A DNA stretch of 64,000 nucleotides from Bacillota bacterium (GCA_963648435.1 CAVJDT010000003.1:14582-78581), one strand, 5' to 3'. Counted from the stretch's first letter, positions 46,279 to 55,477 are shown. Numbers and translations: made by a program. Notes: generated from the letters alone by a model not told the origin.

Positions 46279-47679
46279 CTAGTGTTTAGTTTTTTCTTTA
46301 TGTTTATAAGGAATTCTAAATAGTTGTTTAAACAAATCTTTAACATTAAAGGGAATAAAGGGATAAAGATAAGGCCGATTAAAACTTTTAAGACAGGCAA
46401 GATAGATAATAAGTAAAATGGTTCCACCAATAAAACCAGGTAATTTAAAAAAATATACACATAATAATAAAAATATATTAGCCATCTTATTAGCTAACGA
46501 TAACTCATAACTAGGTGTTATGTAAGACCCTATCGCCGAAATAGCCGCTAAAATAACAATTTGTTCTGTAAATAATCCCACCTTTATCGCAACATCACCA
46601 ATAATTAGGCCTGAAACCAGTCCCATTGATGTAGATAGAGCATTGGGGGTATGAATTGAAGCCATTCTAATTAATTCAATTCCAATTAAAACCGTAATCA
46701 GTTGTAAAAAAAGAATATTATGATTATGATTACTTGGAATGAATAACTGTAAGTTAGGTAAATTATAATCAGTTAAAGCATACCATAAAGGGATACAAAA
46801 GAAAGCCATAACAATTCCCAATATTCTAATTAACCTTAAATACGACCCCGCAACAACTGTTTGTCTAAATTCTTCGGCATGTTGTAAATGATCAAAAACA
46901 CTAACCGGGCCTAAAATAGCACTTGGTGAGGTATCAACAATCAAGCCAAACATTCCTTGATATAAATGAATAGCAAGCGTATCTGGTCTTTCTGTATATT
47001 TTACTAAAGGATAGGGACTATACCGATGATTAACTAATAATTCTTCAAGGGCTTTATCACTCATTGTTAATTCTTTAACTTTTATATTATCAAGTTTTTC
47101 CATAATTGTTTTTAAAATATTAGGTTTAATAACATCTTTTAAATAAACTAAAGCAACCTTAGTTTTACTAATTGTTCCAATTTCCCAAATTTTCATTCCG
47201 AGTTTACCTGTTTTAATTCTTCTTCTAATTAATCCAATATTGGTGGCAAAATTCTCAGTAAATCCGTCTCTACTTCCTCTTACTACTTTTTCACCATCTG
47301 GTTCACTAATTGAGCGAGATGGATATTGTTTAGTTTCACTGATAAACATTAAGTTTTTACTACACGTTACCACTAAATCGCCATTAAACACCGCATCACT
47401 TGCCATATTTAAATCAGTGGTAAATTCCAAATTTAAAGAAGTAAGATTATTAGCTATTACCTCTTTGATATTATTTTGATTAATTTGATCTTTTATTTTT
47501 ATAAAGCTTGTCATTAATCTTGAAATAGCAAGACTATTTGCGAGAAACGAATCATAATAAAAAGTAAAAGTTAAATTATTACCATTAGTTATTGTTCTTT
47601 TAGTAATATCAAAGGTTATATTTAGTCCTAATATTTCATCTAGAGTTTGATTGTTTGGTTCTTTATTCATTTTAGCCAC
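46279..47679 (-). CDS. spoVAF: stage V sporulation protein AF (GerA-family germination protein paralog)
   Basis: GerA-family core GSRDGFTENFATNIGLIRRRI..PYPL and C-terminal TM helices; last gene of the spoVA cluster. Confidence 0.75.
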   Translation of the reverse strand: MAKMNKEPNNQTLDEILGLNITFDITKRTITNGNNLTFTFYYDSFLANSLAISRLMTSFIKIKDQINQNNIKEVIANNLTSLNLEFTTDLNMASDAVFNGDLVVTCSKNLMFISETKQYPSRSISEPDGEKVVRGSRDGFTENFATNIGLIRRRIKTGKLGMKIWEIGTISKTKVALVYLKDVIKPNILKTIMEKLDNIKVKELTMSDKALEELLVNHRYSPYPLVKYTERPDTLAIHLYQGMFGLIVDTSPSAILGPVSVFDHLQHAEEFRQTVVAGSYLRLIRILGIVMAFFCIPLWYALTDYNLPNLQLFIPSNHNHNILFLQLITVLIGIELIRMASIHTPNALSTSMGLVSGLIIGDVAIKVGLFTEQIVILAAISAIGSYITPSYELSLANKMANIFLLLCVYFFKLPGFIGGTILLIIYLACLKSFNRPYLYPFIPFNVKDLFKQLFRIPYKHKEKTKH

Positions 47680-48022
47680 GCGGTTTAAAAATTAAAGCAA
47701 CAATAAATGATGAAAAAATGGCGGTGGAAATACCACTAGATGTTATATCAAAAATACCAGTAAAAAGTCCCATTATGCCGCTTTCTTCAGCTGCTTTTAG
47801 GGCCGCATGCGTTAAGGAATGTCCAAAAGATGAAATGGGGACAAGAGCTCCCCCACCAGCTACTTTAATTAATTTATCATATAGACCAAAACATTCTAAA
47901 AATGAACCAAGCATAACGTATATAACTGTTAAATGAATAGGAAGTAATTTAGCTAAATCCATGATTAACTGAGCAATCATACAAATTAATCCACACACTA
48001 AAAATGCTAGTAAAAACTTCAT
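47672..48022 (-). CDS. spoVAEb: stage V sporulation protein AEb
   Basis: 116 aa, multi-TM; sits between spoVAD and spoVAF as in Bacillus. Confidence 0.75.
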   Translation of the reverse strand: MKFLLAFLVCGLICMIAQLIMDLAKLLPIHLTVIYVMLGSFLECFGLYDKLIKVAGGGALVPISSFGHSLTHAALKAAEESGIMGLFTGIFDITSSGISTAIFSSFIVALIFKPRG

Positions 48023-49030
48023 TTAATCCCACCTTTCTAAACATATTGCATGACTAATGCAAGGAATAGTATCTTTTTGCGCAACCATTACTGGGTTTAA
48101 TAAAGCACCAGTTGCGAGAATTAATACCTTTTTATATGTTCCTTTTTTTAATTCTTCAACAATATAACTGAGTAGATAAGCCGTTATACAGCCACATCCA
48201 CTCCCCCCCGCAAACACTTTTTGCTTTTTAATATTATACAAATTTTTCCCCGCATCTTTATGCTTATCTTTTAATAAAATTCCATTTTCCTTGCAACATT
48301 TAATAAATAATTCACTACCATAAATTGATAAATCACCAGTAACAATAACATCATAATCATCAACAGTTTCATTAAAATTACTTAAATGATCAAAAAGTGT
48401 TTCAGCAGCACTTGGAGCCATTATGCGTCCCATATCTTGAGCATCTTTTTGATTTACATCAATAATCTTACCAATAGTTCCGGATTTTACACAAATACGT
48501 GTAGGTGTACTTCCTAATAAACATATCCCCGCCGCGGTAGTAGTGAAAGTCATAGAAGTAGGCTTTTGTCCCCCATATTCTGTTGGATAACGAAATTGTC
48601 TTTCACTAGTCGCATTATGACTAGAACTTGCAACTAAAACCTTCGCATTTTTGATACTATCAACATAAATACTTCCTAAAATCATATTTTCTGTAATTGT
48701 TGAACATGCGGCAAAAGTCCCCAAAAAAGGAATAAAAGTATTACGCATTGCATAAGTACTAGCCACAATTTGATTATTTAAATCTCCCGAAAACATAACA
48801 TCAATATCATTTGGACATAATTTTTCTTTTTGACAAATTATTTCAAAAGCTTTTTTAACTAGTGCAATTTCAGCTTTTTCCCAAGTTTTTTCATTACAAT
48901 AATTGTTATCATAACTATAATCAAAATAATTACCATAAGGACCATTTTTTTCTTTTGGCCCTGTCACGACTGCGGTATTTTCAACAAAAACACTATCAAA
49001 ACTTAAACTATTTCGACCAACTTTTTTCAT
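48023..49030 (-). CDS. spoVAD: stage V sporulation protein AD (thiolase-like fold, DPA uptake)
   Basis: 335 aa; condensing-enzyme-like fold (..GGSGCGC..), matching SpoVAD length and synteny. Confidence 0.8.
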   Translation of the reverse strand: MKKVGRNSLSFDSVFVENTAVVTGPKEKNGPYGNYFDYSYDNNYCNEKTWEKAEIALVKKAFEIICQKEKLCPNDIDVMFSGDLNNQIVASTYAMRNTFIPFLGTFAACSTITENMILGSIYVDSIKNAKVLVASSSHNATSERQFRYPTEYGGQKPTSMTFTTTAAGICLLGSTPTRICVKSGTIGKIIDVNQKDAQDMGRIMAPSAAETLFDHLSNFNETVDDYDVIVTGDLSIYGSELFIKCCKENGILLKDKHKDAGKNLYNIKKQKVFAGGSGCGCITAYLLSYIVEELKKGTYKKVLILATGALLNPVMVAQKDTIPCISHAICLERWD

Positions 49031-49031
49031 A

Positions 49032-49484
49032 CTATCTAATTAAATAAATAATGGTGGCACTAATAAATGAACTAACAACTCCCGCAACAATTACCGTCCC
49101 TGCTAATTTAAACATATTACTCATAATACCAAGAACGACCCCTTCACTTTTCCCTTCTAAAGCAGCTGAAGTCATTGAATTTGCAAAACCAGTAATTGGA
49201 ATAAAAGTTCCCGCCCCCGCAAGTTGTCCAATTTTATCAAATACCCCAATTCCTGTTAAAATGGAAGTTATAACAACAATACTCATTGACATCAACCCAT
49301 TTGCCATTAATTCTTCAATTTTAAACACCATAACATATAAAGTTATCAGTCCTTCTGCGATAATTCCAATCACTCCTCCGATTAAAAACGCAAATAGCAA
49401 ATTTTTTATAATTGGTCTTTTTACAGGTTTTTCTTTAATAATTGATTGATATTTTTGTAATCTCTTATTTTCCATATTAATCAC
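49032..49484 (-). CDS. spoVAC: stage V sporulation protein AC
   Basis: 150 aa, 4 TM; KNLLFAFLIGGVIGIIAEGL typical of SpoVAC. Confidence 0.8.
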   Translation of the reverse strand: MINMENKRLQKYQSIIKEKPVKRPIIKNLLFAFLIGGVIGIIAEGLITLYVMVFKIEELMANGLMSMSIVVITSILTGIGVFDKIGQLAGAGTFIPITGFANSMTSAALEGKSEGVVLGIMSNMFKLAGTVIVAGVVSSFISATIIYLIR

Positions 49485-49577
49485 TCCTTTTAGATTATTT
49501 TTCCATTTTTATTTGAAAATATACCTAATTTGTGAAAAAAGCCTTTAAAGCAAAATTACCTTAAAGACATATTTTTT

Positions 49578-50903
49578 TTATTTAACAGTTTGAATTTCAC
49601 CAGCTTTAGTTAAAGCAATTTTAGTAATAACTGGTCCAATTAATTCATAAAACAATGTTGCACAAAGGACAACCGCCGTAATGGTCGAAGCCATATTAGC
49701 TAAATAATTATAACCACTTTCATTAACCACTTTTAAGCTTTCCGTTGCAAAACTTCTAAATGTACTTGATGAACTTCGGGCCATACCAATTGCCACCCCT
49801 GCTTGAGGAAGCAAAGTTAAACCTAAATATTTTTTGACAGTTCCTCCAGTATGTGCCATCGTACAACCAAGTCTTGCCCCAAAATATTTACCAAGTGATC
49901 TAGCAAGTAAATAAACAGCACAAATACCAATAACTGTCCAACTTCCCATAACACTAAAATCTAGTTCAGCTCCAGATAAAATAAAGAATAACATAAATAA
50001 AGCCGGAGTCCAACGTTCAATACCATCTAAAATGTTTATAGCATCTCTTTCCATATTACAGAAAATTGCACCAATCATCATACAAGTAAGTAATGATGAT
50101 AGTTCCATATTGAATTTTTCTGCGAATAATTCACAGAGTCCTACTCCTAAAATTACTGATGCAAGCATGCAAATTAAACGATTAGCTCGAGATTTAAAAA
50201 ATTTCATCGCAAAAGTTAAAATAAAACCAAGGGTTGCCCCAATTGCAAGTGACAAAAAAATCTCACAAAGTGGCATTAAAAGAATATTTTTAATACTGAT
50301 GGTCGCACCATCCACCCCCGCATATTGTTTTGCTAGAACTTGAGCTACAGAAAAAGAAATAGAAAATAAGATTAAGCCAATTGCATCATCAAAGGCAACT
50401 ACTGGTAACAAAATATCCGTAACAGGACCTCTTGCTTTATATTGTTTAACAACCATTAAGGTTGCGGCAGGAGCCGTGGCGGTAGCGATAGCACCAAGAG
50501 TTAAAATTAATGGTAAATTAGCTTCTAAATTTCCAACAATTAAACAAGTAATTACTAAAAATACATCAACAGCCACTAAAGCCATACACGATTGCATGAT
50601 TGTAATTGTAATAACCCCTTTACCAATCTTTTTAATACTTGATAGTTTAAATTCACTACCAATCGAAAAAGCAATAAAACCTAAAGCTAAATCAACAATA
50701 ATTCCAAAAGCCGAAACCATTTCTTTATTAATGACTCCATCAAGTTTGGAATTAAATAAACTAAATAAATAAGGTCCTAATAAAATACCAACAATCAAAT
50801 AAGCTGTAACATTAGGTAAATGAACTAACTTTATAAGTCGATTGGAAATAAGTCCTGCAACTAAAGCAATACCTATTCCTAATAATATATACGCTGAGGT
50901 CAT
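49578..50903 (-). CDS. CPA2-family monovalent cation:proton antiporter, membrane domain only (no fused RCK/KTN domain)
   Basis: 441 aa, ~12 TM; N-terminal ILLGIGIALVAGLI..VTAYLIVGILLGPY typical of KefB/NapA-like exchangers. Confidence 0.75.
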   Translation of the reverse strand: MTSAYILLGIGIALVAGLISNRLIKLVHLPNVTAYLIVGILLGPYLFSLFNSKLDGVINKEMVSAFGIIVDLALGFIAFSIGSEFKLSSIKKIGKGVITITIMQSCMALVAVDVFLVITCLIVGNLEANLPLILTLGAIATATAPAATLMVVKQYKARGPVTDILLPVVAFDDAIGLILFSISFSVAQVLAKQYAGVDGATISIKNILLMPLCEIFLSLAIGATLGFILTFAMKFFKSRANRLICMLASVILGVGLCELFAEKFNMELSSLLTCMMIGAIFCNMERDAINILDGIERWTPALFMLFFILSGAELDFSVMGSWTVIGICAVYLLARSLGKYFGARLGCTMAHTGGTVKKYLGLTLLPQAGVAIGMARSSSSTFRSFATESLKVVNESGYNYLANMASTITAVVLCATLFYELIGPVITKIALTKAGEIQTVK

Positions 50904-51235
50904 TATTCGTCAAGTCCTTCCAAATAACTTATCGGTAATGAATACATAAATCCTTTACCTTTAATTCCTCCTACTACTTCTTTGACAAGTTCACTTAATT
51001 TTTTAATTTCTTCATCTTTCTTTACAACCACAAAAATCATTGGACGGGCAACTTCTTTGCCTTCAACAACTTTAGTAAGACCACCAAAATAAGGTTCAGG
51101 TTCTATTGAATCCATTAATGCATGCCTAATACTTCTAGTTGAAAGCACAGTTCCATGATAATTATTGTCAGAAAACTTCTTTAATATTGAAGACACATAA
51201 ACATCTTCTGTTAATACTACAATAAATAATTGCAT
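50903..51235 (-). CDS. PII-like small signalling protein (DarA/PstA- or DUF190-like), translationally coupled to the antiporter
   Basis: 110 aa. The pattern MQLFIVVLTEDVYVSSILKKF..GTVLSTRS..MIFVVVKKDEEI..L matches the PII beta-alpha-beta fold (compare DarA KLIVAVVQDQD..GYRATKL). Its TAA stop overlaps the downstream ATG (TAATG). Confidence 0.45.
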   Translation of the reverse strand: MQLFIVVLTEDVYVSSILKKFSDNNYHGTVLSTRSIRHALMDSIEPEPYFGGLTKVVEGKEVARPMIFVVVKKDEEIKKLSELVKEVVGGIKGKGFMYSLPISYLEGLDE

Positions 51236-51309
51236 ATAATACCTCCATAAATTCTAAACTATTATACCACTTTTGATTTGCAAATGTTCAAAAAAAGCAT
51301 TAGGAAACC

Positions 51310-53784
51310 CTAATACTTTTTTGCTTTTTTAATAATTCGAAGGGTATTTAAGATTGCAAGCAAACATAAACCTACATCTGATAATACTCCAATTAACATA
51401 CCATATGAACCAAGGAGTTGGAAGGTACTTAAAACAAGCACTCCTACTTTAACTAATATAGCCACAATTATATTTTCATAAATAATTCTCATGGTTTTTT
51501 TAGAAATAGCAATAGCATCAATTATCTTACCAATATCATCATTCATAATAACAACATCTGCTGCGGTTTTCGCAATATCACTACCTTTAGCCCCCATTGC
51601 AATTCCAACCGTTGCCATTTTTAAGCTTGGAGTATCATTAATCCCATCACCAACATAAACAATTGATTTATTATTTTTTAATTTTTCACTTAAAACATCA
51701 AGTTTTTCATTTGGTAATAACTTAGCATAAGCTTCATCAACCCCTAATTTCTTTTTAACGCTACTAACAATTTTTTCACTATCGCCACTTAATATCGTAG
51801 TAGTAATATTTTGAGAGCGTAAATATTCAATAGTTTCTTTAGCTCGGGGTTTTAGTTCATCAATGACAACAATACTACCAACAAATTTTCCATCAATCGC
51901 AATATAAACAACCGATCCAGGACATGTTTCTAAAACATAGTCAATATTGTTTTCTTTCATTAAACGTTCATTACCAATTAAAACCTTCTTGTTTTCAAAA
52001 TTTGCAGATAAACCGAACCCCGCAAGTTCTTGAAGATTTGAAACTCTATCTTGATTAATATCCCCATGATATGCCGATACAATGGATTTTGCGATTGGGT
52101 GATTTGAAAATGATTCAATGGTTGCGGTTAACTCTAATAATTCATCATAAGTATAACCATCAAATACATTAATTTCATCAACCACAAAGTTACCCTCAGA
52201 TAATGTTCCAGTTTTATCAAAAACAAATGCTTTTGTTTTGCTTAAATATTCTAAATAATTTCCACCTTTAACTAAAATACCATCACTTGAAGCTCGGCCA
52301 ATCCCACTAAAGAAACCAAGAGGAACTGAAATTACAAGGGCACAAGGACAAGATACAGTTAAGAAAACTAAAACCGTATTAATTGTTTCCGCATTAGAAA
52401 TACCTAAGGCAAATTTCATTACAAGGCCTGTAACAACAGCTGATGCAAGAATAATTGGAGTATAGACTCTTGCAAATTTTGTAATAAACTTTTCAGTTTT
52501 TGATTTTTTATTACTTGCTTCATCAATTAATTTAACCACCTTACTAATTGTGGAATCACTTTCAACAGTTGTAACTCTAATTTTAATTACTTTAGTTAAA
52601 TTAATACAACCTGATAATACTTCATCACCAATATTAATTTCACTAGGCAAAGATTCACCAGTCAAACACTTAGTATCAAGACTGGTACTACCATCAATTA
52701 TAACCCCATCAAGAGGGATTTTTTCTCCAACCTTAACAACAATGATATCACCAATATGAACATCTTTAAGTTCTACTACATCACCATTTTCAAGAGTTGC
52801 CTTATCAACTTTTAATTCCATAAGACCTTGAATTGATTTTGTAGATTTATCAATGGCACGAGATTGAATTTTTTCACCAATACGATATAAAAGAATAACC
52901 ATAATCGCTTCAATTGGTTCTTTGTTAATAAATGCTCCAACTGAGGCGATTAACATTAGAAAGTTTTCATCAAATATTTGTCCATGAATAATATTTTTGA
53001 ATGATTCATATAGTACTTTATATCCAATTAAGAAATAAATAACCCCAAATATAATATACATATAGAAACTTTCATCTTTACCAATAATCCAGTATAATGA
53101 AGATGCCACAAAAAGTGTAACTGATATAATAAATAAGATAAAACTTACTTTAGATTTTTTTGATTTTTCTGTCTTATTCTTTAAAACAATAGCTTCACTT
53201 TCAATTTTTTTAACTTCCTTACATACCGTTTCATATACTTCAACATTATTACGGTGGGTAATAATAATTTTTTTATTAACAAAGTTAACTTTAGCATCAA
53301 TAATATCATTACATTTATTTAAAGCTCTTTCAACTTTTAAGGCACAATTAGGACAGTCAATGTTTTCAAACATATACTCATCAACCGCCATATTTGGTCC
53401 TAGCTCTTTATTTTTAGAATTTATGTGTTCATGGTCATGGTCGTGATCATGTTCACAGCAGTCACAATGCCCATGGTCATGTTCATGATCGTGGTCACAA
53501 TGTTCATGGTCGTGATCACAATGTTCATGCTCATGATGCTTTGCTTTTTTGGAAGTTACAACTTTACCATTTTGATGAAACGGGCATTTACTTAAGTTTA
53601 TAACTGTTGCTAAAATCATCTTAACTTCATCTTCTGTTAAATTTCTACGGCCTTCAATTGATACTTTTTTACGGTCATAATTAATATTTACTTCTTTAAT
53701 ATACTCGATTTTTTGCAAGTTTGTGGCTAATATTTTTGCACAATCCGGGCATTTAAGTTCTTTAACTTTAAATGTATACTGCAT
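51310..53784 (-). CDS. cadA: Cd2+/Zn2+-type heavy-metal P1B-ATPase
   Basis: Two HMA domains (CPDCAKIL, CPNCALKV) and a His/Cys/Asp-rich stretch. Also carries the CPC transmembrane motif, DKTGTLS and GDGINDTPSL. Confidence 0.9.
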   Translation of the reverse strand: MQYTFKVKELKCPDCAKILATNLQKIEYIKEVNINYDRKKVSIEGRRNLTEDEVKMILATVINLSKCPFHQNGKVVTSKKAKHHEHEHCDHDHEHCDHDHEHDHGHCDCCEHDHDHDHEHINSKNKELGPNMAVDEYMFENIDCPNCALKVERALNKCNDIIDAKVNFVNKKIIITHRNNVEVYETVCKEVKKIESEAIVLKNKTEKSKKSKVSFILFIISVTLFVASSLYWIIGKDESFYMYIIFGVIYFLIGYKVLYESFKNIIHGQIFDENFLMLIASVGAFINKEPIEAIMVILLYRIGEKIQSRAIDKSTKSIQGLMELKVDKATLENGDVVELKDVHIGDIIVVKVGEKIPLDGVIIDGSTSLDTKCLTGESLPSEINIGDEVLSGCINLTKVIKIRVTTVESDSTISKVVKLIDEASNKKSKTEKFITKFARVYTPIILASAVVTGLVMKFALGISNAETINTVLVFLTVSCPCALVISVPLGFFSGIGRASSDGILVKGGNYLEYLSKTKAFVFDKTGTLSEGNFVVDEINVFDGYTYDELLELTATIESFSNHPIAKSIVSAYHGDINQDRVSNLQELAGFGLSANFENKKVLIGNERLMKENNIDYVLETCPGSVVYIAIDGKFVGSIVVIDELKPRAKETIEYLRSQNITTTILSGDSEKIVSSVKKKLGVDEAYAKLLPNEKLDVLSEKLKNNKSIVYVGDGINDTPSLKMATVGIAMGAKGSDIAKTAADVVIMNDDIGKIIDAIAISKKTMRIIYENIIVAILVKVGVLVLSTFQLLGSYGMLIGVLSDVGLCLLAILNTLRIIKKAKKY

Positions 53785-53793
53785 AACTTACTC

Positions 53794-54093
53794 CTATAAA
53801 TGTTCTAAATGTTCAATAGTAATTTCTAGTATTTGTAAAACATGTTCATCAACAATTGAATAAAATATCATCTTGCCATCTCTTCTTGTTTTAACAAGTC
53901 GAGCATGACGTAATATTCGTAATTGATATGAAACAGCCGTTTGGCTCATGTCAACATCTTTTGCAATATCTTGTACACATTTTTCCCCTTTTAATAATGA
54001 TGTAATAATTTTTACTCGTGAAAAATCAGATAAATTCTTATAAAACTCTGATAATTCATAAATATCATTTTCATTTAGTGTGTTTTTATTCAT
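53794..54093 (-). CDS. cadC: ArsR/SmtB-family metalloregulator (CadC-like)
   Basis: HTH ..VQDIAKDVDMSQTAVSYQLRILRHARLV; start set at MNKNTLNE; directly upstream of cadA. Confidence 0.8.
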   Translation of the reverse strand: MNKNTLNENDIYELSEFYKNLSDFSRVKIITSLLKGEKCVQDIAKDVDMSQTAVSYQLRILRHARLVKTRRDGKMIFYSIVDEHVLQILEITIEHLEHL

Positions 54094-54166
54094 GTTACAC
54101 CTCACATATGAATATATACACATATATTATACATAATTATATAAATAAATCAACACATATGCTGTA

Positions 54167-54712
54167 TTATTTAGTAATCGCAATTTTTTCACGCATTTCT
54201 TTAAGCATTCTACTAACTTTGCTTTGACTTATGGAAAGTTCCTTTGCTATTTCAACTTGACTATACCTGTTTTCTAAACGAAGTTTTAATAGTTCTTTTT
54301 CCATAGCTGTAAAATTAAACGCATCTAAATTTAAATAATTTCCCTCTATATCATTCATATCTTCTTTTAGTTCTACTTGATAATATTCTTTCGCAACTAA
54401 ACTATCAGTTTGATCAATTGTTTTTTCTTTTGATGAAGTTAAATTTTTATAGTATTTACTAGTTTTAATTAAACTGCGTTTCTCAAGTTCATCTTTGATA
54501 GCCCCAATAATATAGTAAGTAGCATAAGTTGAAAACTTCGCTCCTTTCGTAACATCATACTTTTTCGCCGCGTTAAATAGTCCCATCATTCCAGCTTGTA
54601 CTAAATCATCATAATCAAATGGACTTACCTTAAAACGCCTAGCGATTTTATAAACTAAACGTTGATTAGATTCAACTAAAAACTCATATTGACTAGTATT
54701 CACCTTGTTCAT
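54167..54712 (-). CDS. sigF: compact sporulation-type sigma factor (regions 2 and 4 only) in the sigF position
   Basis: Region 2 (DLVQAGMMGLFNAAKKYD..FSTYATYYIIGAIKDEL) and a region 4 HTH (SQVEIAKELSISQSKVSRM) are present. At 181 aa it is far shorter than the 255-aa B. subtilis SigF. It follows spoIIAA-spoIIAB and dacF. Confidence 0.55.
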   Translation of the reverse strand: MNKVNTSQYEFLVESNQRLVYKIARRFKVSPFDYDDLVQAGMMGLFNAAKKYDVTKGAKFSTYATYYIIGAIKDELEKRSLIKTSKYYKNLTSSKEKTIDQTDSLVAKEYYQVELKEDMNDIEGNYLNLDAFNFTAMEKELLKLRLENRYSQVEIAKELSISQSKVSRMLKEMREKIAITK

Positions 54713-55127
54713 GATATTTTTTTACCATTAATACCTTAGTGCCCTCATTAACACGTGATGTAACATCTAGTTTATCAGTGAATACTTCCATTATTGTAAA
54801 GCCAAGGCCTGCCCTTTCTTCATCTATTTTTGTACTAAATAATGGTTCTTTTGCTTTTTCAATATCTTTTATGCCAATTCCATAGTCAACTACTTCAATA
54901 TAAATATTTTCTAAATCAAAGCGAAGATTTAATTCTACTTTTTTTGAACTATCATTCAAATATCCGTGAACAATCGCATTAGTTACAGCTTCTGATACAA
55001 TTGTTTTAATTTCATTAACTGTGCTAATTGGTAAATTTAATTCAACCAAAAAAGCCGTGGTAATGGTTCTAGCAAGTAAAACATTTTCATTACGTGCTAA
55101 AAAGCTTGTTTTTAATTCATTATACAT
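54693..55127 (-). CDS. spoIIAB: anti-sigma F factor (serine kinase, HATPase_c)
   Basis: ..SEAVTNAIVHGY..GLGF; 145 aa after the start is moved to MYNELKT, which overlaps the spoIIAA stop by 1 nt. Confidence 0.8.
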   Translation of the reverse strand: MYNELKTSFLARNENVLLARTITTAFLVELNLPISTVNEIKTIVSEAVTNAIVHGYLNDSSKKVELNLRFDLENIYIEVVDYGIGIKDIEKAKEPLFSTKIDEERAGLGFTIMEVFTDKLDVTSRVNEGTKVLMVKKYHEQGEY

Positions 55128-55477
55128 TATGCTACCTCCAAATAATTTTCCGCTTCTTGTTCGTTTGAAGCAATTATACAAATTTTTTTAAGGCCTGACA
55201 AAGCCACAATCCTACTTATTATTTCATTCATTGAACAAATTACAATTTTTCCATTTCTTTTTCTAATTTGTGAAAATCGACCAATAATAAACCCAATTCC
55301 ACTACTATCCATAAAAGTTACTTTCTCAAAATTGATAATTAAATGTTTAATCATATATTTATCGATAATTTCACTTACCCGAATCTTTAAATTTTCGGTT
55401 ACTGATTGATCAAGTTCACCATTTAGTCTAATGAATAAGCGATTTTTTCTAATTGCCATTTGCATATTTAATGCCAT
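55127..55477 (-). CDS. spoIIAA: anti-sigma F factor antagonist (STAS domain)
   Basis: 116 aa; phosphorylatable Ser in DSSGIGFIIGR. Confidence 0.8.
   Translation of the reverse strand: MALNMQMAIRKNRLFIRLNGELDQSVTENLKIRVSEIIDKYMIKHLIINFEKVTFMDSSGIGFIIGRFSQIRKRNGKIVICSMNEIISRIVALSGLKKICIIASNEQEAENYLEVA

Follow-up and report, generated by a model that had tools for sequence, protein, structure and literature searches.

A divergent PII-like protein encoded in a conserved gene pair with a NapA-like cation/proton antiporter that lacks a regulatory domain

PII and PII-like proteins gate ammonium, bicarbonate and nitrate transporters, and RCK domains gate cation/proton antiporters. What, then, is the function of a small PII-like protein that is encoded directly upstream of a cation/proton antiporter with no RCK domain? 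The question is raised by a locus in a 64,000-nucleotide stretch of DNA from a Bacillota bacterium (GCA_963648435.1 CAVJDT010000003.1:14582-78581), which is referred to here as the window and whose numbering is used throughout. Two open reading frames (ORFs), both on the minus strand, occupy positions 49578-51235. The upstream ORF (50903..51235, -) encodes a 110-residue protein that library scans, homologues and a structural model place in an uncharacterized PII-like clade outside any Pfam or NCBIfam family. The downstream ORF (49578..50903, -) encodes a 441-residue antiporter, for which Pfam and NCBIfam scans, alignments, a model and Foldseek searches indicate a CPA fold, an ion-binding site of the CPA2 type and the absence of any soluble domain. 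On balance, we favor the view that the two genes form an operon in which the small protein acts as a PII-like regulatory subunit of the adjoining antiporter, in the manner of GlnK-AmtB and SbtB-SbtA, for which PII regulation of an adjacent transporter is established (bioRxiv 10.1101/2023.08.10.552651).

The only point in favor of regarding the small ORF as spurious is that it carries no annotation. It has 70 homologues of 109-112 residues (52-96% identity), all of which are unnamed or labelled 'hypothetical', and 17 columns of their alignment are invariant, a degree of sequence conservation that marks it as a real gene. The small protein has no significant match in Pfam or NCBIfam, and a plasmid collection contained no homologue of it; a search of PDB sequences returned antibody light chains (E ~0.02-0.3) that were judged to be spurious. 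Its structure was predicted as a monomer with AlphaFold2 using the homologue alignment as input (predicted local distance difference test score (pLDDT) 77, predicted template modeling score (pTM) 0.68). The modelled topology is β1 (residues 2-8), α1 (11-23), β2 (29-33), a loop (34-63), β3 (64-71), α2 (74-88), a second loop (89-94) and β4 (95-101), i.e. a double β-α-β arrangement with a ferredoxin-like core that reproduces the fold-level layout of PII proteins. When the model was compared to the PDB using Foldseek, the top 50 structures were all canonical PII proteins (GlnB/GlnK/GlnZ, E ~5e-6), and CutA ranked below canonical PII in both fold searches performed with the model.

The two loops of the modelled protein correspond to the functional loops of PII. 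Based on the model and on conservation, the long β2-β3 loop formed by residues 34-63 (51047..51136, -) is the counterpart of the PII T-loop. It contains the conserved motif E45-P46-x-P48-x-F50-G51-G52-L53, and residues S35, I36, P46, P48, F50 and G51 within it are invariant among the homologues. The T-loop is modelled with low confidence (pLDDT 47-54) and appears disordered, yet it ranks among the best-conserved parts of the small protein, a combination that fits a partner-binding element. The short α2-β4 loop formed by residues 89-94 (G-G-I-K-G-K, followed by G95; 50954..50971, -) is the counterpart of the PII B-loop according to the model and to an hhalign alignment.

Remote sequence relatives lead to the same superfamily. 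A family profile searched against 1.8 billion representative proteins (threshold E<=1e-3) recovered 199 representative clusters, nearly all of which contain proteins of 108-118 residues. In a Pfam scan of 108 relatives found with the profile, 56 matched P-II (PF00543, best 3.8e-9) and five gave weak, partial matches to CdAMP_rec (PF06153), while two longer relatives from the same profile search exceed the PF00543 gathering score (25 bits). A profile of the wider family aligned over its full length with canonical PII in hhalign (probability 83%, E 9e-6), a comparison for which the PII reference sequences were entered by hand, and it matched PII/GlnK among PDB sequences at E ~5e-4. The elements that persist most strongly in the wider family are the T-loop segment P48-x-F50-G51-x-L53-[R/S], the G95...P101 segment and the C-terminal E106-G107. 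These alignments and the model place the small protein in the PII superfamily, as part of a divergent clade that has not been curated, and the model, the fold searches and the remote P-II relatives all bear out the double β-α-β, PII-like fold that a preliminary description of this DNA had proposed. The profile search also returned a protein of 422 residues (P0177), in which a PrmC-type methyltransferase is apparently followed by a P-II domain at the C-terminus (33.5 bits, exceeding the cut-off of Pfam); the fusion is probably a read-through or gene-calling artefact. A PII-antiporter fusion had been sought as evidence, and this candidate proved uninformative.

Which type of PII protein is it? 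The preliminary description likened it to DarA/PstA and to DUF190 proteins, a resemblance that did not hold up, as the small protein matches neither PF06153 nor PF02641 (DUF190) in Pfam, and its loops, a T-loop of ~30 residues and a B-loop of ~6 residues, have the layout seen in PII and SbtB. In DarA/PstA proteins it is the B-loop that is long and the T-loop that is short, opposite to PII (PMC6516651). The darA gene is not known to have a transporter gene as its partner. PF00543 itself does not match the small protein even at E<=1, and the hhalign alignment indicates that it retains only the backbone glycines of PII: G27, G87 and G89 of PII correspond to G28, G93 and G95, the spacing of the B-loop glycines matches that of G84/G87/G89, and G87-D88-G89-K90 of PII is paired with G93-K94-G95-F96. 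In contrast, the basic side chains that PII uses to bind ATP and 2-oxoglutarate are not kept, as R38, Q39, K90, R101 and R103 of PII align with H38, A39, F96, G107 and D109, respectively. The small protein further differs from GlnK in lacking the B-loop signature T-G-x-x-G-D-G-K-I-F and the Tyr51-type modification motif Y-[KR]-G-[AS]-[AE]-Y, its T-loop instead reading DSIEPEPYFGGLTKVVEG, and from SbtB in lacking the C-terminal CGPxGC redox loop; its C-terminus is PISYLEGLDE and there is no cysteine anywhere in the sequence.

These features bear directly on what the small protein might sense. An adenine nucleotide would be the default guess for a member of this superfamily, though the canonical phosphate-binding residues are absent. 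A second candidate is c-di-AMP, in which case the small protein would be a DarA/PstA- or SbtB-like receptor that puts the antiporter under c-di-AMP control and takes the place of the RCK_C subunits of KhtTU, CpaA and CpeAB. This idea draws on the control of CPA2 K+/H+ antiporters by c-di-AMP through RCK_C proteins in Firmicutes and Actinobacteria (PMC10117811, PMC7132281), on the binding of c-di-AMP by SbtB, which is PII-like and has a long T-loop (PMC8654305), and on the weak PF06153 matches in five of the 108 wider-family members. We consider it unlikely. In close out-group relatives the PF06153 matches cover only ~30 residues and score 16-22 bits, below the cut-off of 27, the loop layout is the reverse of that in DarA/PstA, the residues that contact the ligand could not be matched, and an Rfam scan of positions 48500-52500 found no family match and no riboswitch, including the c-di-AMP riboswitch. 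Sensing of c-di-AMP by the small protein is thus speculation, and for the nucleotide-sensing role suggested in the preliminary description none of these observations supports a particular ligand.

Residues 12-417 of the downstream ORF's product align with the PF00999 model (83 bits, E 2.4e-23; the cut-off is 26.2 bits). The match of this protein to the NCBIfam CPA2 model TIGR00932 reaches 33.5 bits, far below the cut-off of 238.3; as that model was apparently trained on Kef-type members, the antiporter would belong to a divergent branch. In the AlphaFold model (pLDDT 80, pTM 0.79), helices run from residue 4 to residue 433, and neither the Pfam scan nor the model contains an RCK/KTN domain or any other soluble domain, in agreement with the preliminary description. 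Its further statement that RCK domains usually gate this family is overstated, as the closest solved relatives, NapA, NHA2 and NhaP, have none. Foldseek matched the model to NHA2, SOS1, NapA, PaNhaP and MjNhaP1 (E 2.6e-11 to ~1e-8), with KefC appearing only at rank 30. The fold matches to NapA from Thermus thermophilus and to NHA2 extend over the full length (E 2.6e-11 to 4.4e-10) at only 18-20% identity, and a profile of the antiporters that are partnered with the small protein also aligns full length with NapA. CPA2 proteins are distinguished by an Asp-Asp pair in transmembrane helix (TM) 5 and a lysine in TM10, and CPA1 proteins by Asn-Asp and an arginine. In the alignment, the invariant D172-D173 pair (50385..50390, -), the CPA2 'DD' motif, lies over the VIDDV sequence of NapA, while K339, also invariant in the partnered antiporters, aligns with the TM10 lysine of NapA (K305). 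The CPA1 protein PaNhaP has N-D where the antiporter has D172-D173. The conserved aspartate pair and lysine therefore point to an ion-binding site of the CPA2 type, and we classify the protein, from its sequence and predicted structure, as a NapA/NHA2-like CPA2 cation/proton antiporter without a regulatory domain of its own.

The antiporter differs from NapA and NHA2, neither of which has a described PII-like partner, in carrying an additional conserved C-terminal tail. The tail spans residues 419-437 (49593..49649, -) and contains the motif YE-x-x-GP-x-x-x-K-x-x-L-x-K-AGEI, which is kept in all partnered antiporters down to 40% identity. In the model it forms a helical extension past the last transmembrane helix, and the alignment with NapA ends before it. 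One might speculate that the small protein docks onto this tail.

Is the association of the two genes more than a local accident? We scanned one genome per species and found 31 loci, in metagenome-assembled genomes (MAGs) labelled Bacilli, 'Mollicutes', Erysipelotrichaceae, Acholeplasmatales, 'Staphylococcus sp. CAG:324', Christensenellaceae, Clostridia, 'Bacteroidales' (one MAG) and Oscillospiraceae. The antiporter gene lies immediately 3' of the small gene in all 31, with a junction spacing of -11 to +12 nucleotides. Ten distant relatives, which are 19-29% identical to the window protein, were also examined. Nine adjoin a PF00999 gene encoding 385-406 residues, and in one of the distant relatives, from a Clostridium sp., the genes overlap and stand in the opposite order. 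The genes that flank the pair in the window are common only to the three closest loci, and the pair itself is therefore the conserved unit, one that is common in gut Bacilli, Mollicutes-like lineages and Clostridia. Conservation of the pair in relatives had been named beforehand as an observation on which the proposed relationship should stand or fall, and it was upheld. The pairing persists at low sequence identity, with either gene first and among unrelated neighbors, which effectively refutes the idea that the adjacency is meaningless, just as the homologues do for a spurious ORF.

Within the window, the two genes are joined by a TAATG stop/start overlap (50901..50905, -); the junction reads GAC GAA TAA TG, so that one A is shared between the TAA stop codon and the ATG of the antiporter, as previously described. 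A GGAGG ribosome-binding site lies 6 nucleotides 5' of the small ORF's ATG (51242..51246, -). Upstream of this ORF is a sigma-70-like promoter candidate (51261..51290, -) comprising TGAACA, an 18-nucleotide spacer and a TG-extended TATAAT (10/12 matches), which is a consensus match only, of a kind that is not found in the region above shuffled expectation. A terminator-like hairpin followed by a T-run lies 10 nucleotides past the antiporter stop codon (49541..49568, -); three such terminator-like sites were found, as compared to 0.6 expected from shuffled sequences. With a promoter-like site 5' and a terminator-like hairpin 3', the pair looks like a self-contained two-gene transcription unit.

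How might such a unit work? In the mechanism that we favor, the small protein would be a soluble member of the PII superfamily, probably a trimer, that binds the cytoplasmic face of the antiporter via its long conserved T-loop. Binding would switch K+ or Na+/H+ exchange on or off, and the switch would be set by a small molecule that binds, as a ligand, where the small protein's subunits form clefts with one another. The small protein would thus be a detachable cytoplasmic subunit, in the role that RCK_C subunits play in regulating KhtU and CpeB (PMC10117811, PMC7132281). The resemblance to KhtTU, CpeAB and CpaA lies in the combination of a NapA-like CPA2 protein without its own sensor and a soluble regulatory subunit from the same operon; however, the regulator in those systems has an RCK fold and binds c-di-AMP, whereas here it is PII-like. 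Neither feature of Kef/KhtTU-type gated CPA2 proteins, a fused RCK/KTN domain or an RCK protein in the same operon, is present, and no RCK gene (TrkA_N or TrkA_C) was found among the genes neighboring the pair. CpeC, for which 22% identity to KhtS is reported, is predicted to be a membrane protein with 3 TMs, and KhtS-type small subunits therefore probably differ from the soluble small protein. As in GlnK-AmtB, a membrane transporter shares its operon with a small double β-α-β protein whose T-loop is long, whose B-loop is short and which would be expected to make contact through the T-loop; in the window, the partner is a CPA antiporter of the dimeric type, whereas AmtB is a trimeric channel. 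SbtA, the cyanobacterial Na+/bicarbonate transporter partnered with SbtB, is likewise a trimer, and the partner here is a PF00999 protein instead.

Several observations weigh against this mechanism or limit its support. As far as is known, every CPA antiporter of solved structure is dimeric, whereas PII proteins are trimeric, and the 'plug' with three-fold geometry that GlnK-AmtB and SbtB-SbtA use is therefore not directly transferable. The link to PII runs through intermediate sequences and predicted structure, as the narrow family alone gave no significant hhalign match to canonical PII. The pairwise identities of the small protein and the antiporter are correlated (r=0.85), which is what co-inheritance alone gives and is no independent evidence of contact. 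Finally, one distant relative (P0218, L036:4001-4351) has no adjoining antiporter and is located between a ROK/MarR-like gene and an ATP synthase operon. The ROK/MarR-like gene lies upstream of it, and it is positioned 17 nucleotides upstream of the F-type ATP synthase genes (atpI-B-E-F-H-A). The PII-like clade may have a second, different target.

This relative also hints that targets can differ, and as such it lends some weight to a model in which the roles are reversed: the antiporter would be the membrane anchor or the sensor, and ion or pH status would be relayed to other cytoplasmic targets by the PII-like protein. GlnK, which AmtB sequesters and which also acts on other targets, would offer a parallel. 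PII proteins are typically multi-target (PMC8042125). We nevertheless regard it as improbable, if slightly less so than c-di-AMP reception, as a strict 1:1 operon pairing with translational coupling is seen in 40 of the 41 loci examined and no third partner gene is conserved nearby. Control of the antiporter by the small protein remains the reading that we prefer. Extending it to the whole family, it is possible, and we advance the idea tentatively, that a widespread Firmicutes PII-like clade acts as the dedicated regulatory subunit of NapA-type CPA2 antiporters, with a geometry unlike the plug and a ligand site without the canonical ATP residues.

The genes surrounding the pair in the window encode SpoVA, GerA-family, P-type ATPase, ArsR, SigF and SpoIIAB proteins. 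On one side are spoIIAB-sigF and an ArsR/P-type heavy-metal ATPase pair, and on the other spoVAC-spoVAD-spoVAE and a GerA-family gene, the flanking regions extending over 46279-49484 (-) and 51310-55181 (-). Proximity to the metal ATPase and its ArsR regulator, along with the absence of the canonical nucleotide-binding side chains, could be taken to mean that the small protein senses no ligand at all and instead serves in assembly or stability, or binds a metal or cofactor as CutA does, on a PII/ferredoxin-like scaffold. This seems very unlikely to us, as the T- and B-loops of CutA are truncated (PMC6516651), in contrast to the 30-residue conserved T-loop of the small protein, CutA was outranked by canonical PII in the fold searches, and the metal-ATPase neighborhood is restricted to the three closest loci. 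The P-type ATPase itself (51310-53784, -) contains a single HMA domain that scores as significant (residues 139-183), and an N-terminal segment with CxxC is HMA-like by eye. Between them, at about residues 80-122, is an unusually long His/Asp/Cys-rich stretch, HEHEHCDHDHEHCDHDHEHDHGHCDCCEHDHDHDHEH, that is presumably a metal-binding region.

The sporulation and germination genes raise another possibility. GerN and GerT are CPA2 antiporters that act in Bacillus germination, and in one distant relative (L045) a GerA-family gene is divergently adjacent, so a link of the pair to spores is conceivable. A role in spore germination was nevertheless set aside as part of the module, as the spoVA surroundings are likewise confined to the three closest loci.

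A full-text literature search for a pairing of PII-like proteins with CPA2 antiporters found no paper describing one. A PII-like protein adjoining a transporter is a known theme; what would be new is an uncurated PII-like clade dedicated to CPA2 antiporters. The module is compact, consisting of two genes with their own candidate promoter and terminator, and is directly testable. If the proposed relationship is true, it would offer the PII field a new ligand pocket and a trimer that engages a dimeric target. Cytoplasmic pH and K+/Na+ homeostasis would then answer to PII-type control by a metabolite or second messenger, and the module would join PII-type sensing with pH and alkali-cation antiport.
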